Shown one piece after another: positions 4,677 to 61,831 of a stretch of 64,000 nucleotides of DNA. A model generated the notes under the pieces. The model did not search any database. It was not told the origin of the DNA and saw nothing but the letters and a program-made list of their open reading frames with translations. The number at the start of each line of letters is the position of its first letter. Position 1 is the first letter of the stretch. This stretch comes from Escherichia phage SelmaRatti, in the sequence record MZ501103, one strand, 5' to 3'. The translations under genes were made by a program, and so were the position numbers.

Positions 4677-6053
4677 ATGACTATTGATATTAATAAGCTG
4701 AAAGAAGAACTTGGTCTGGGTGATCTGGCTAAATCTCTGGAAGGTCTGACCGCTGCTCAGAAAGCTCAGGAAGCTGAACGTATGCGTAAAGAGCAGGAAG
4801 AAAAAGAACTGGCTCGTATGAATGATCTGGTTTCTAAAGCAGTTGGCGAAGATCGTCAGAAGCTAGAAGAAGCTCTGGAACTGGTTAAATCCCTGGATGA
4901 AAAATCTAAGAAGAGCGCAGAACTATTTGCACAGACTGTAGAAAAGCAGCAGGAAACTATCGTTGGTCTTCAGGACGAAATCAAGTCTCTGCTGGCAGCT
5001 CGTGAAGGTCGTTCATTCGTAGGGGATAGCGTAGCTAAAGCACTGTACGGTACTCAGGAAGCTTTTGAAGATGAAGTTGAAAAACTAGTCCTCCTGTCTT
5101 ATATGATGGAGAAAGACGTATTCGAAACTGAACATGGTAAGGCTCACGTTAAAGCTGTTAACGGTTCTTCTTCCGTTTCCATGTCTAGCGAAGCATACGA
5201 AACTATCTTCTCTACCCGTATTATCCGTGACCTGCAGAAGGAACTGGTAGTTGGTGCACTGTTCGATGAACTGCCAATGTCCAGCAAAATCCTTACTATG
5301 CTCGTTGAACCAGAAGCTGGTCGTGCTACTTGGGTAGATGCTTCCAAATTCGGTACTGACGAAACTGTTGGTGACGAAGTTAAAGGTCAACTGACTGAAA
5401 TCAGCTTCAAAACTTACAAGCTGGCTGCTAAATCCTTCATCACTGATGAAACTGAGGAAGATGCAATCTTCTCCCTGCTGCCTCTGCTGCGTAAGCGTCT
5501 GATCGAAGCACACGCTGTTTCTATCGAAGAAGCTTTCATGTCCGGTAATGGTACTGGTCAGCCTAAGGGTCTGCTGAAACTGGCTGCTGATGATGGTGCT
5601 AAGGTTATTACCGAAGCTAAAGCTGACGGTTCTGTTCTGGTAACTGCTAAGACTATCTCCAAGCTGCGTCGTAAACTGGGCCGTCACGGTCTGAAACTGA
5701 GCAAACTGGTACTGATCGTATCTATGGATGCTTACTACGATCTGCTGGAAGATGAAGAATGGCAGGATGTTGCCCAGGTTGGTAACGATGCTGTTAAACT
5801 GCAGGGTCAGGTTGGTCGTATTTACGGTCTGCCGGTTGTAGTTTCTGAGTACTTCCCAGCTAAAGCTGCTTCCGCTGAATTCGCAGTTATTGTTTATAAA
5901 GATAACTTCGTAATGCCGCGTCAGCGCGCCGTTACTGTTGAACGTGAGCGCCAAGCTGGTAAACAGCGTGATGCATACTACGTTACTCAGCGTGTTAACC
6001 TGCAACGTTACTTTAATAATGGCGTTGTATCTGGTGCTTACGCTGCATCTTAA
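4677..6053 (+). CDS. major capsid protein with N-terminal scaffolding (delta) domain (pb8-like)
   Basis: 458 aa; N-terminal ~100 aa coiled-coil rich in E/K/L followed by HK97-fold-like capsid region; strong codon bias; no separate scaffold gene nearby. Confidence 0.9.
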   Translation: MTIDINKLKEELGLGDLAKSLEGLTAAQKAQEAERMRKEQEEKELARMNDLVSKAVGEDRQKLEEALELVKSLDEKSKKSAELFAQTVEKQQETIVGLQDEIKSLLAAREGRSFVGDSVAKALYGTQEAFEDEVEKLVLLSYMMEKDVFETEHGKAHVKAVNGSSSVSMSSEAYETIFSTRIIRDLQKELVVGALFDELPMSSKILTMLVEPEAGRATWVDASKFGTDETVGDEVKGQLTEISFKTYKLAAKSFITDETEEDAIFSLLPLLRKRLIEAHAVSIEEAFMSGNGTGQPKGLLKLAADDGAKVITEAKADGSVLVTAKTISKLRRKLGRHGLKLSKLVLIVSMDAYYDLLEDEEWQDVAQVGNDAVKLQGQVGRIYGLPVVVSEYFPAKAASAEFAVIVYKDNFVMPRQRAVTVERERQAGKQRDAYYVTQRVNLQRYFNNGVVSGAYAAS

Positions 6054-6063
6054 TATTGACTAC

Positions 6064-6118
6064 TATACCCTCTCAAAAGAGAGGGTATACCATATTACAG
6101 TTCATTCATATGGTATAC
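6064..6118 (+). terminator. two overlapping alternative hairpins downstream of major capsid gene
   Basis: 11-bp perfect stem 6064-6074/6079-6089 and 11-bp perfect stem 6085-6095/6108-6118 share 6085-6089; no U-tract. Confidence 0.4.
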
Positions 6119-6136
6119 TTGTATGGGGGTTACTAA

Positions 6137-6706
6137 ATGGCAGGAAAAGCGATACCTTATGAAATAAGGGAAAAGCAAATTCTAGAAATTTGCGAAAAAG
6201 AAGGGTATGTATATAAAGGGGTGGTTGGTAACTTTAAGAATTCAGAATCCAAAATACTGATAGAATGCACTAAGGATGGTAATTGTTGGACTCCACGCAT
6301 ACGTAATTTTGTCAATACTGGTTCACGATGTCCAAAATGTTGTCAAACACGTTTTTTGAAGGCAAAAGAAAATAAAGTAGTATCTATAGAAGATACTACT
6401 GCTATTTTTTATATTCAAAGATTGACTAACAATTATCACTCAGTTCTAAAATATGGAATAACTTCCCGAAATATTGATGTTCGGATTAGAGAACAATCAC
6501 GAGTATCAGCCTATACTCACGAACTACTCCTATCAGTGCAACTACCTTCTAGACAGGAGGCATTTATGTTAGAAGCCTTAGTAAAACAGTCTATTCCTTC
6601 TGGGTTTCTTACTCCTGCTCTTCTCCCTGATGGGTATACAGAAACCTGTCTTGAAAAATACCTGCCAGAGATAAAACATATAGTTTATAATTATATGTTT
6701 TCCTAG
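6137..6706 (+). CDS. zinc-ribbon + T5orf172 (GIY-YIG-like) domain protein, putative homing endonuclease
   Basis: One C-x-x-G-x-C-W...C-P-K-C zinc-ribbon unit followed by a T5orf172-like block (IFYIQRL...KYGITSRN...R..E); paralogous to 42636-43301 and 52729-53592. Confidence 0.6.
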   Translation: MAGKAIPYEIREKQILEICEKEGYVYKGVVGNFKNSESKILIECTKDGNCWTPRIRNFVNTGSRCPKCCQTRFLKAKENKVVSIEDTTAIFYIQRLTNNYHSVLKYGITSRNIDVRIREQSRVSAYTHELLLSVQLPSRQEAFMLEALVKQSIPSGFLTPALLPDGYTETCLEKYLPEIKHIVYNYMFS

Positions 6707-6724
6707 TAACGGCTCTTTAGCCGA

Positions 6725-6750
6725 AAGAGAGCTTCGGCTCTCTTTTTTAT
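6725..6750 (+). terminator. rho-independent terminator
   Basis: stem aagagagc/gctctctt with TTCG loop followed by TTTTTT. Confidence 0.7.
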
Positions 6751-6761
6751 TGGAAAAATAA

Positions 6762-7274
6762 ATGCAAATCATCACTATTGAAGACTACAGACTATATGCT
6801 AATGCAAAGCGACCTGATATGGAAACTCAGGTTGAGATGATGATTAAAGCTGCCAATACGCTGATTACAAGCCTTCTAGGTATGGATGATGCAGATGCGG
6901 TAGATCAATTAATCACTACAAAACCTAGCCGTAGGAAATATTTCCTGAGTTCTCCCTCAGCCACATCTATTACAAAGATGACTATTAACGAGAATGAAAT
7001 AGGCCAGGAACAGTTTAAATTGTACCCTAATGGTGTTATTCTTCTTAAATTTAATCCTCCTGAGGGATATATGGATGTAGAATATACCCAAGGTGGTTTC
7101 AACCCAATGCCTGAAGATCTTAAGCTGGCAGCATGCCTGTTAGTAGATCACTGGCATAAGCAGGATTATCGTCAAGCCAAGACTATTGGTGGGGAGACAA
7201 TTACGTTTAATAGTACTAAGTCTGGTATTCCAGAGCATATTCGTACAATCGTCGAAGTATATAGGAGAGTATAA
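6762..7274 (+). CDS. hypothetical virion protein (head completion/connector candidate)
   Basis: 170-aa ORF in head-tail joining region; assignment by synteny only. Confidence 0.45.
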   Translation: MQIITIEDYRLYANAKRPDMETQVEMMIKAANTLITSLLGMDDADAVDQLITTKPSRRKYFLSSPSATSITKMTINENEIGQEQFKLYPNGVILLKFNPPEGYMDVEYTQGGFNPMPEDLKLAACLLVDHWHKQDYRQAKTIGGETITFNSTKSGIPEHIRTIVEVYRRV

Positions 7275-8559: not shown

Positions 8560-9951
8560 ATGTCTTTACAACTATTACGTAATACTCGAATCTTCGTGTC
8601 TACGGTTAAGACTGGTCATAATAAGACCAACACGCAAGAGATTCTAGTTCAGGATGATATTTCTTGGGGTCAGGACAGTAACTCAACAGATATTACTGTT
8701 AACGAAGCTGGTCCGCGTCCTACTCGTGGTTCTAAACGTTTTAACGATTCCTTGAATGCGGCTGAGTGGAGTTTTTCTACTTATATCCTGCCATACAAGG
8801 ATAAAACCTCTAATAAACAGATTGTTCCCGACTACATGTTATGGCATGCTCTTTCTAGTGGTAAAGCGTTAAACCTTGAGGGAGACACAGGTGCGCATAA
8901 TAATGAAGCTAACTTCATGGTTAACTTTAAAGATAACTCTTATCATGAGTTGGCTATGCTGCACATCTACATTCTTACTGACAAAGCATGGAGCTATATT
9001 GACTCTTGCCAGATCAACCAGGCAGAAGTTAACGTTGATATTGAGGATATTGGTCGTGTAACTTGGTCTGGTAAGGGTAATCAGCTTATTCCTCTGGATG
9101 CGCAACCATTTGATCCGGATAAGGTAGGTATTGATGATGAAACTTATATGACTATCCAGGGTTCTTACATTAAGAACAAACTAACCGTCTTGAAGATCAA
9201 GGATATGGATACCAATAAGTCTTATGACATACCAATTACCGGTGGTACTTTTACTATTAACAACAACATTACTTACCTAACACCTAATGTAATGTCCCGT
9301 GTTACTATTCCAATTGGTTCCTTTACTGGTGCTTTTGAATTAACTGGTTCTCTAACAGCATACCTTAACGATAAAGCTCTTGGTTCTATGGAACTGTATA
9401 AAGATCTTGTCAAAACCCTTAAGGTAGTTAACCGCTTCGAAATTGCTCTAGTACTTGGCGGTGAATACGATGAAGAACGTCCTGCGGCTATTCTAGTAGC
9501 TAAACAAGCACATGTTAATATTCCTACTATTGAAACTGATGATGTACTTGGTACTTCAGTAGAGTTTAAAGCTATTCCATCTGATCTGGATGCTGGTGAT
9601 GAAGGTTACTTAGGCTTCTCTAGTAAATATACCAAAACAACTATTAATAACTTGATTGTTAATGGTGATGGTGCTACTAATGCTGTAACCGCAATTACTG
9701 TTAAATCTGCTGGTAATGCTACTTCTGTTCGGACTGGACAAACTCTTCAGATGAGTGTTGAAGTTACCCCTTCTTCTGCAAAGAATAAGGATGTTACTTG
9801 GGCTATCACCAGCGGTGATGCAGCTACTATCAATGCAGCAGGACTATTAACAGCCCATGCTAGTAAAACAGGTGCGGTAACTGTTGAAGCTACAGCTAAG
9901 GATGGTTCTGGAGTTAAAGGCACTAAAGTTATTACTGTAATAGGTGGTTAA
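8560..9951 (+). CDS. major tail tube protein with C-terminal Ig-like (Big_2-type) domain (pb6-like)
   Basis: 463 aa; C-terminal ~80 aa show the T/S/V/A-rich beta pattern of Ig-like domains; AGGAG RBS; size as recalled for T5 pb6. Confidence 0.85.
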   Translation: MSLQLLRNTRIFVSTVKTGHNKTNTQEILVQDDISWGQDSNSTDITVNEAGPRPTRGSKRFNDSLNAAEWSFSTYILPYKDKTSNKQIVPDYMLWHALSSGKALNLEGDTGAHNNEANFMVNFKDNSYHELAMLHIYILTDKAWSYIDSCQINQAEVNVDIEDIGRVTWSGKGNQLIPLDAQPFDPDKVGIDDETYMTIQGSYIKNKLTVLKIKDMDTNKSYDIPITGGTFTINNNITYLTPNVMSRVTIPIGSFTGAFELTGSLTAYLNDKALGSMELYKDLVKTLKVVNRFEIALVLGGEYDEERPAAILVAKQAHVNIPTIETDDVLGTSVEFKAIPSDLDAGDEGYLGFSSKYTKTTINNLIVNGDGATNAVTAITVKSAGNATSVRTGQTLQMSVEVTPSSAKNKDVTWAITSGDAATINAAGLLTAHASKTGAVTVEATAKDGSGVKGTKVITVIGG

Positions 9952-9955
9952 TTAA

Positions 9956-10855
9956 ATGTTTTATTCTCTCATGCGAGAGTCTAAAATAGTTATTGAGTAT
10001 GACGGTAGAGGGTATCATTTCGATGCCCTATCAAACTATGATGTGCGTACTTCCTACGAAGAGTTCAAAACTCTTCGTAGAACTGTTCATCGTAGAACTA
10101 ACTATGCAGACTCTATTATAAATGCTCAAACTCCCTCTTCTATCTCTCTAGCAGTAAATTTCAGTAATACTCTTACTGAGGCTAACTTCTTTGAATGGTT
10201 AGGTTTTTATAGAAAAGGTAATACTTTCTTACTCCCACTATATAGTAGTAATATTGAACCTATTATGTTCAATATCTATATAGTAAATAAAGATAATAAC
10301 TGTGTATATTTTGAAAACTGTTATGTATCTACAGTAGATTTTTCTTTAGATAAGAATATACCAATTCTTAATGTTGGTATTGAGTCTGGAAAATTCTCAG
10401 AAGTATCTACGTATAGAGAAGCAGCCTCTATTATACAGGGTGAAGTAATGTCTTACAGCCCAGTAATAGCTTCTACTAATGGCAGCATCTTACCCGGTCT
10501 TATTTCTGCCTCTTTATCTTTCCAGCAGCAGTGCTCCTGGAGAGAGGATAAGAGTGTTTTTGATATAAATAAAATTTATAATAATAAAAGAGCTTATGTA
10601 AATGAAATGAATGCTTCGGCAACCATTTCCCTGTATTACTTAAAACGTTTTGCAGGAGATATGGTTTACAATATCGAACCGGAGACAGATGTACCTTTAA
10701 ATATAAGAAATAATAATATTTCTATAGATTTTCCTTCAGCACGTATTACAAAACGCCTAGATTTCTCAGATGTGTATAGAGTTGAGTGGGATATTATACC
10801 TACTGCTTCCTCAGACCCAGTGAGAATAGATTTCTTTGGAGAAATTAAAAAATGA
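9956..10855 (+). CDS. hypothetical protein
   Basis: 299-aa ORF between tube and chaperone-like ORFs. Confidence 0.5.
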   Translation: MFYSLMRESKIVIEYDGRGYHFDALSNYDVRTSYEEFKTLRRTVHRRTNYADSIINAQTPSSISLAVNFSNTLTEANFFEWLGFYRKGNTFLLPLYSSNIEPIMFNIYIVNKDNNCVYFENCYVSTVDFSLDKNIPILNVGIESGKFSEVSTYREAASIIQGEVMSYSPVIASTNGSILPGLISASLSFQQQCSWREDKSVFDINKIYNNKRAYVNEMNASATISLYYLKRFAGDMVYNIEPETDVPLNIRNNNISIDFPSARITKRLDFSDVYRVEWDIIPTASSDPVRIDFFGEIKK

Positions 10856-25131: not shown

Positions 25132-25164
25132 AAAACCCCGGTGGACAAAATCCACCGGGGTTTT
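25132..25164. terminator. bidirectional rho-independent terminator between convergent late (+) and early (-) modules
   Basis: AAAACCCCGGTGGA caaaa TCCACCGGGGTTTT: 10-bp GC stem flanked by A-run and T-run. Confidence 0.8.
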
Positions 25165-61734: not shown

Positions 61735-61760
61735 ATAGCCCTTCGGGGCTATTATATTTA
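61735..61760 (+). terminator. terminator hairpin after GIY-YIG gene
   Basis: stem ATAGCCC/GGGCTAT with TTCG loop, T/A-rich tail. Confidence 0.55.
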
Positions 61761-61768
61761 AATTTCAT

Positions 61769-61797
61769 TTGCTTATTTAGTGAAATTTAAATATAAT
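61769..61797 (+). promoter_or_regulatory. sigma70-type promoter (TTGCTT-17-TATAAT)
   Basis: -35 61769-61774, -10 61792-61797. Confidence 0.6.
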
Positions 61798-61831
61798 ATA
61801 CTCAATTAATAAACAAAGGATAAATACGAAT

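Follow-up and report, generated by a model that had tools for sequence, protein, structure and literature searches.

A pair of abutting hairpins in the leader of a putative homing-endonuclease cassette of T5-like phages: a possible RNA-level insulator behind the capsid gene

Introduction

The homing-endonuclease genes of T-even phages are often promoter-less cassettes carried on upstream transcripts, and they are held down by RNA hairpins located at the ribosome-binding site or a short way 5′ of it (PMC2988022). Examples are I-TevI, I-TevII, I-TevIII, segB and mobE of Aeh1, together with seg43(25) of Aeromonas phage 25 (PMC2988022). In T5-like phages, genes of the T5orf172 type with CapR-like domains are reported to be abundant and often to lie near capsid genes (PMC10448857). 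Hairpins can also be made at the DNA level. Loop inversion, perfect stems and the replacement of whole stems are footprints of template switching during DNA synthesis (PMC8794818).

We analyzed a stretch of 64,000 nucleotides from Escherichia phage SelmaRatti (sequence record MZ501103), called the window here. Two perfect hairpins, H1 and H2, stand between the stop codon of the capsid gene and the start of an endonuclease-like gene. The locus is similar to the T-even systems in that a stable leader structure precedes a selfish nuclease gene that would be carried on the message of the host gene before it. In two of the four clades of leaders (clades A and B), folding predictions place the ribosome-binding site in a paired region. 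As in seg43(25), the strongest hairpins in the window's leader lie just upstream of the ribosome-binding site and not over it. Unlike the T-even systems, the phage is T5-like, the nuclease is of the CapR-domain/T5orf172 type, and there is no sequence similarity. Two abutting hairpins and a predicted long-range closing stem are seen here as against one hairpin there, no internal late promoter is detectable, and occlusion of the Shine–Dalgarno (SD) sequence is not conserved in the four clades.

Stabilizing stem-loops are also found between the cistrons of polycistronic mRNAs, for example the REP elements in malEFG and the hairpins of the puf operon. There are one or two of them, they are very stable and lack a U-tract, and they separate highly from weakly expressed cistrons. 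The hairpins described here are like these in that they would function through the stability of the stem, with sequence turnover and loop inversion tolerated. Unlike these, they sit on a mobile cassette and do not belong to the operon.

Results

Sequence reading and a repeat finder revealed two hairpins on the + strand. H1 (6064–6089) is GC-rich and made of the arms TATACCCTCTC (6064–6074) and GAGAGGGTATA (6079–6089) closed by the tetraloop AAAA. H2 (6085–6118) is AT-rich, and its arms, GTATACCATAT (6085–6095) and ATATGGTATAC (6108–6118), enclose a loop of 12 nt. Both stems measure 11 bp, with arms that are 100% complementary. The initial annotation had described these two stems, the sharing of positions 6085–6089 and the lack of a U-tract after either hairpin, and all of this was borne out: the repeat finder gave the same shared positions, and the terminator scan was empty at 6064–6118. 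First-order Markov simulations of the window, in which perfect 11-bp stems with loops of 3–14 nt were counted, gave an expectation of 0.22 ± 0.54 such hairpins per 64 kb. The window holds six distinct ones, of which two adjoin each other here. The fold of the 106-nt region has a z score of −4.08 relative to dinucleotide shuffles, none of which (0/200) was as good. Chance is excluded, and the hairpin pair is real and non-random. A permissive Rfam 15 scan of 5800–6900 returned chance-level matches alone (E ≥ 1.4) and none at the gathering score. The 3′ foot of H2 carries the motif TATACT (6114–6119, + strand), which the alignment shows to be invariant in all leaders, at a distance of 17 nt from the ATG (21 nt in clade D). 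This invariance is accounted for by none of the models considered below.

Further hairpins were noted elsewhere in the window. There is a 12–13 bp hairpin at 10054–10080 (CTACGAAGAGTT / AACTCTTCGTAG) without a U-tract, within the coding sequence of the ORF 9956–10855 and just downstream of a 463-aa ORF (8560–9951). The region 61735–61810 shows another pairing of a GC-rich with an AT-rich hairpin, here with a clear promoter: the terminator-like ATAGCCC-TTCG-GGGCTAT comes first, and after it an AT-rich inverted repeat of 11 bp (TTTAAATTTCA / TGAAATTTAAA) brackets the −35 element TTGCTT of a T5-type promoter (TATAAT, then ATACT). The 14-bp perfect hairpin at 25132–25164 (AAAACCCCGGTGGA / TCCACCGGGGTTTT) has A and T runs on its flanks and, judged by its sequence, looks like a bidirectional terminator between converging genes.

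The window comes from a T5-like phage, and its positions 5850–6900 share 99.7% identity with Escherichia phage TrudiRoth (Bas30). Of the 445 phage records that match part of this region, only 26 reach a query coverage of 80% or more. The major capsid protein gene occupies 4677–6053 on the + strand and ends with the TAA codon at 6051–6053; both come from the ORF list, and the gene is annotated as such in TrudiRoth. Salmonella phage SB9 does not have the endonuclease. The sequence after its capsid stop reads TAATA-CA-GGCTTTTCAGCC-GATAAG-GAGAGCTTCGGCTCTC-TTTTTT, and the order is capsid stop, small hairpin, textbook terminator and then the head-completion gene. In the window, about 655 bp separates TAATA from GGCT. 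The small ancestral hairpin GGCT-CTTT-AGCC, which aligns with the sequence right after the capsid stop in SB9, is found at 6711–6722 (+ strand). It is followed at 6727–6748 (+ strand) by the ancestral intrinsic terminator of the capsid gene, GAGAGC-TTCG-GCTCTC with six T residues, which was identified by the terminator scan and by alignment with the endonuclease-free allele. Phages that carry the 655-bp insert and phages that lack it have the same flanks, and the cassette is a presence/absence polymorphism at a precise intergenic point. Since the terminator in the window stands 3′ of the endonuclease gene, the hairpins and the gene together make up a single insertion of approximately 655 bp between the stop codon and the terminator of the capsid gene. 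This cassette of leader and ORF (about 6056–6710, + strand) is missing from most relatives.

We also considered that the leader might be a dispersed mobile regulatory element. A sensitive blastn search placed the 83-nt leader solely at this locus and only alongside the endonuclease gene (26 records), and the idea was rejected. The leader has no annotation in any of the records examined. By these comparisons, the hairpins are the 83-nt leader of the endonuclease cassette and not the native 3′ end of the capsid gene. The initial annotation had proposed an RNA stability element that protects the 3′ end of the capsid mRNA. The pairing is conserved, and stability or insulation is still the most sensible reading, but the element does not form the native 3′ end of the capsid gene: the terminator of the endonuclease-free relatives persists at 6727–6748, and the hairpins never occur without the cassette.

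The gene behind the hairpins (6137–6706, + strand) is a homing-endonuclease-like ORF of 189 residues. It consists of a CapR-like DNA-binding domain at the N-terminus and a putative nuclease-family C-terminal half. The Pfam CapR homology domain was identified with E = 5.8e-9 and PHROG 681 (“endonuclease”) with E = 1e-42. No Pfam nuclease domain reached the threshold, and no relative was found in the PDB. Relatives carry the annotations putative homing endonuclease or GIY-YIG nuclease, and the T5orf172/GIY-YIG assignment derives from these annotations and from PMC10448857. Between the leader clades, the endonuclease proteins are 59–79% identical. More distant homologues at other loci are without the leader, and no paralogue of the gene was found in the window. 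A leader common to the wider endonuclease family was considered and rejected, with differing upstream regions in the 37%-identical homologue of IrisVonRoten and in a Klebsiella phage homologue.

Some of the records deserve separate mention. In HildyBeyeler, the endonuclease ORF (L006, 588–1158) is split into three annotated small ORFs and is probably a decaying gene; its leader is intact, with an H2 that reaches 13 bp. An 8-codon mini-ORF, ATG GTA TAC TTG TAT GGG GGT TAC TAA, occupies 6110–6136 in the window. It starts within the 3′ arm of H2 and stops immediately 5′ of the endonuclease ATG. Phage Tennessee has lost the stop of this mini-ORF, and its annotated endonuclease is 10 codons longer (L009, 558–1157). 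The records OR846901 and OR848485 (“Listeria phage”) and MG065642 (“Campylobacter phage A148”) contain T5-like capsid and endonuclease sequence about 96–97% identical to the window. The named hosts are not expected for T5-like phages. The two Listeria-named records bear the mark UNVERIFIED_ORG, and mislabelling or contamination of the assemblies is probable.

Leaders were gathered from 16 phage records and two metagenome contigs and can be grouped in four clades. Protein and pattern scans of IMG/VR for further lineages returned SP3 and NR01 alone, and the metagenome scan contributed one variant each of clades A and D; the independent lineages behind the comparative evidence are four only. Clade A comprises the window, TrudiRoth, SA001, HildyBeyeler, smaug, phagemcphageface, Tennessee and others. 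Its H1 and H2 are both 11 bp, with H2 extended to 13 bp in Tennessee as it is in HildyBeyeler. Clade B (NR01 and YJin-2024a) has H1 made of ATATCCCCTC / GAGGGGATAT and an H2, TATATAGTACAGATATAGT / ACTATATCTGTACTATATA, that is a perfect palindrome with 19-bp arms. In clade C (SP3 and the Kenya phages), H1 is (TAT)ACCCCCTC / GAGGGGGT(ATA), and H2 is a perfect palindrome with 20-bp arms, GTATATTATATTAGTATGAC / GTCATACTAATATAATATAC. Clade D (JLBYU43, PHZ191 and one gut metagenome contig) has ATACACCTCTT / AAGAGGTGTAT as H1 and GTATACAATAGCTA... / ...TAGCTATTGTATAC as H2.

The arrangement of a GC-rich H1 abutting an AT-rich H2 is kept in all four clades. H1 lies 6–13 nt 3′ of the capsid stop in each of them and has a stem of 8–11 bp with a tetraloop. 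The H2 sequences are unrelated between clades outside the shared GTATA...TATAC foot, and the unrelated sequence at the H2 position of the other clades again forms a perfect hairpin, of 13–20 bp. Pairing was counted for 13 distinct leaders with a hand-specified structure on a MAFFT alignment. RNAalifold on this alignment recovered H1 and missed H2, for which the hand-specified structure was therefore used; clades A and D are out of register there. Overall, 87% of the cells are paired (H1 core 100%, H2 88%, closing stem P0 79%), and 14 pairs have changed on both sides, three of them in the H1 core and eight in H2. None of 500 shuffles matched this pairing, which falls to 32–56% when the partners are slid by 1–3 columns. 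Within clade A, leader substitutions are confined to the loops and the spacer between the SD and the AUG; none is in the stems. The stems are perfect Watson–Crick in all of the about 18 sequences, with essentially no G–U in H1 and H2.

RNA folding and covariation across related phages had been put forward in the initial annotation as the check on the pair, and in the four clades the pairing is kept with compensated changes. The retention of pairing through unrelated H2 sequences is strong comparative evidence that the structure is maintained. By the same comparison, three replacements of H2 by new perfect complements cannot be chance. Since pairing is conserved in the relatives with fully compensated sequence change, the structure is selected or actively maintained. 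In NR01 (L003, about 1746–1784) and SP3 (L014, about 531–570), H2 is a perfect palindrome of 38–40 bp with no central spacer. The H2 sequences of clades B and C resemble an inverted duplication more closely than they do an RNA stem that evolved step by step.

The initial annotation held that only one of the two hairpins can form at a time. This is overstated. In the isolated 55-mer, structures within 0.4 kcal mol−1 of each other (−20.8 to −21.2 kcal mol−1) contain both hairpins, and the boundary between H1 and H2 slides over the five shared bases at near-equal energy. In context, the predicted fold is a three-way junction of −34.8 kcal mol−1 that is made of the H1 core (6069–6074/6079–6084, 6 bp), the full H2 and an outer stem, P0. 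P0 and H2 both form with a pair probability of about 0.97; for the outer pairs of the full H1, it is 0.02. Forcing the full H1 costs just 3 kcal mol−1, and H2 stands at about 0.96 in the ensemble. The overlap of H1 and H2 amounts to 5 nt in clade A and K36, 4 nt in clade D, 3 nt in clade B and K20, and shrinks to 2 nt in SP3, K38 and K44; thus, mutual exclusion is not a conserved property.

The 5′ strand of P0 (6057–6068, + strand) begins 4 nt past the capsid stop, and it is seen in the minimum free energy structure and in the ensemble with a pair probability of 0.97–0.98. The 3′ strand (6121–6132, + strand) is predicted to cover the SD sequence GGGGG at 6125–6129, which H1 and H2 themselves do not include. 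The predicted unpaired probability of the SD is 0.19 in the window, the third lowest among 36 genes tested there, and 0.15 in clade B. Clades A and B have a common P0 register with two fully compensated pairs and several G–U pairs. As P0 contains G–U pairs, it is specific to the RNA of the + strand. When a ribosome footprint was masked at the capsid stop, the accessibility of the SD rose to 0.70–0.75 in clades A and B, so P0 could couple translation of the endonuclease to termination of capsid translation. Clade C is predicted to have a different and weaker SD pairing. Clade D has no P0, and its AUG is placed by the prediction in a small local hairpin. The fraction of 5′-flank shuffles with an equally hidden SD was 0.11 in clade A, 0.01 in B, 0.37 in C and 0.20 in D, and this support for occlusion is marginal in clade A and clear in clade B. 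The control weakens SD occlusion as a unifying mechanism. In the folding models, P0 appears well supported in two of the four clades only, and SD occlusion appears to be a lineage-specific add-on and not part of the conserved core.

The H1 tetraloop (6075–6078 in the window) is reverse-complemented between near-identical phages in three clades. Clade A shows AAAA or TTTT, clade B TAAT or ATTA, and clade C TATC or GATA together with the palindromic GATC. TTTT is present in leaders L006, L007 and L008; L003 and L010 carry TAAT and ATTA, respectively, and L012/L013, L011/L014 and L015/L027 carry TATC, GATA and GATC. HildyBeyeler (TTTT) and Tennessee (AAAA) have other leader changes in common, as do smaug (TTTT) and SA001 (AAAA). 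Because the state of the loop disagrees with these linked variants, the inversion in clade A occurred more than once. That the H1 loop can be inverted without loss implies that only the stem matters. Judging from the sequences, the inversions appear to be the mark of template switching. Like the hairpins ascribed to this process (PMC8794818), those at this locus have perfect stems, replacement of whole stems and recurrent inversion of a four-nucleotide loop. The published cases lie in rRNA and microRNA genes, whereas here the site is the edge of a homing-endonuclease cassette. As repair synthesis would copy the cassette at each homing event, a leader at its edge would have repeated chances for template switches.

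Discussion

We favor the reading that the hairpin pair is the structured 5′ leader of a free-standing cassette and acts as an RNA-level insulator between capsid and endonuclease expression. We put this at a probability of roughly 45%, and it is tentative. In a subset of T5-like phages, the cassette was inserted ahead of the capsid gene's terminator, directly behind its stop codon. With no recognizable promoter of its own, its endonuclease would be transcribed as the tail of a very abundant capsid message. Two very stable, abutting stem-loops would shield the capsid segment while the poorly translated endonuclease segment decays from the 3′ side, and they would hold endonuclease translation down by barring access to ribosomes from upstream. 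In the lineage of the window and in clade B, the leader would fold into the three-way junction, with the SD region paired in its outer stem to the 12 nt that follow the capsid stop. Insulation would depend on the stability of the stems and not on their sequence. This dependence is suggested because the stems are free to change in sequence, lie 6–13 nt past the capsid stop and 17–21 nt before the endonuclease start, and are indifferent to loop orientation. We infer the RNA level of action and both consequences, capsid shielding and low endonuclease translation, from the arrangement, the conservation and the predicted fold. No published transcript maps for T5-like phages were found in the literature.

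Other readings at the level of transcription or RNA folding explain less of the locus. H1 could be a leaky, non-canonical intrinsic terminator that ends most capsid transcripts and replaces the displaced native one. It resembles a Rho-independent terminator in having a GC-rich stem and a tetraloop just past a stop codon, and the H1 core (CCCTCTC/GAGAGGG) with its tetraloop is such a GC-rich stem-loop; this placement and a GC-rich stem of 8–11 bp recur in every clade. The bases 3′ of the core are always A/U-rich (UAUA...), and clade C has TATATTAT (5 T in 8) after the stem, which the consensus scan considers terminator-like. However, only 3 U are present in the 8 nt after the core in clade A, where the scan makes no call, and clades B and D are likewise uncalled; the real terminators of the phage (6727–6748 and 25132–25164) do have a U-tract. 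The proposal also leaves H2 unexplained. Placed ahead of 6727–6748, a second efficient terminator would cut off the supply of transcripts to the head-completion and tail genes, which are essential and for which no promoter is present from the terminator to the start codon. We consider a leaky terminator improbable, and, as these essential genes have no promoter of their own there, strong control of transcriptional read-through by the hairpins is unlikely. The initial annotation had raised a switch controlling read-through into the endonuclease gene. In a bistable RNA of this sort, conformers with the full H1 or the full H2 would toggle read-through or translation. In the window, 5 nt do belong to both 11-bp stems, some overlap is present in every clade, and in the window the 5′ TATAC freed from H1 can pair with the SD region instead. 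An either/or switch of this kind does not hold up: both stems coexist with a sliding boundary at equal energy, and in context H2 dominates over the full H1, with no trigger evident. H1 is unable to extend in three clade C phages, so that bistability is not conserved, and no Rfam family matches. A bistable switch is therefore hardly credible. An internal promoter of the I-TevI type is scarcely more convincing. TATACT, or TAnnnT followed by ATACT, would be a −10 element at the 3′ foot of H2, and short transcripts without the inhibitory 5′ strand would be translated. TATACT is invariant and at a fixed distance from the ATG, the motif resembles the −10 element and discriminator of some T5-type promoters in the window (for example, at 61792 and 63215), and a TG stands at the extended −10 position in clade A. 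However, no clade has a −35 element at 16–18 nt or the upstream block AAAAATTT of the real promoters of the window. Consensus scans and comparison with these promoters gave no sigma-70 promoter on the + strand in or after H2, and sigma-70 promoters are reported for the late genes of T5 (PMC7472727). Transcription from this site would also start at or within the SD. We regard such a promoter as very unlikely.

Perfect Watson–Crick stems and the palindromes of clades B and C would fit maintenance at the DNA level as well as selection at the RNA level. The hairpins could matter as DNA, either as palindromes bound by a dimeric protein or as hairpins or cruciforms extruded in replication or homing repair. 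An example would be binding of the palindromes by the endonuclease's own CapR-like domain, with autorepression as for I-TevI; this domain is homologous to CapR, a known transcriptional repressor (PMC10448857). The perfection of the stems in all of the sequences, the spacer-less palindromes in H2 and the loop inversions, which show that a DNA hairpin forms during synthesis (by the mechanism in PMC8794818), are in line with such a role, as is the joint divergence of H2 sequence and endonuclease protein. The points against it are that no promoter is present for repression, that the H2 loop of clade A is 12 nt and non-palindromic, and that template switching alone accounts for perfect stems and flipped loops. 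An I-TevI-type operator that mimics the homing site was rejected. Local alignments of the leader with the endonuclease-free allele, the presumed homing site, are at chance level in all four clades, with 207–300 of 300 shuffles scoring as high. We hold a DNA role, including binding by the CapR-like domain, to be unlikely. It is still less likely that the pair is a DNA-level module of the homing cassette, instead of or besides an RNA element, in which the hairpins, at the leading edge of the cassette, are extruded when repair synthesis copies it into a genome that has been cut and are rebuilt by template switching each time. Such rebuilding would account both for the flipped loops and for the wholesale exchange of H2 for new perfect palindromes. 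The module might also aid homing, for example if it restricted resection or co-conversion into the capsid gene or bound the CapR-like domain.

For annotation, the hairpins at 6064–6118 should not be taken for the capsid terminator. The recurrent loop inversions and whole-stem replacements are a clear natural example of template switching making and keeping hairpins. If the RNA-level insulator is correct, the theme of regulatory hairpins in T4 homing endonucleases would extend to another phage family and another nuclease family. The cassette would bring its own structured insulator and leave the host terminator intact downstream, thus suggesting how a selfish nuclease gene may take a place directly after the structural gene with the heaviest expression and leave that gene unharmed.
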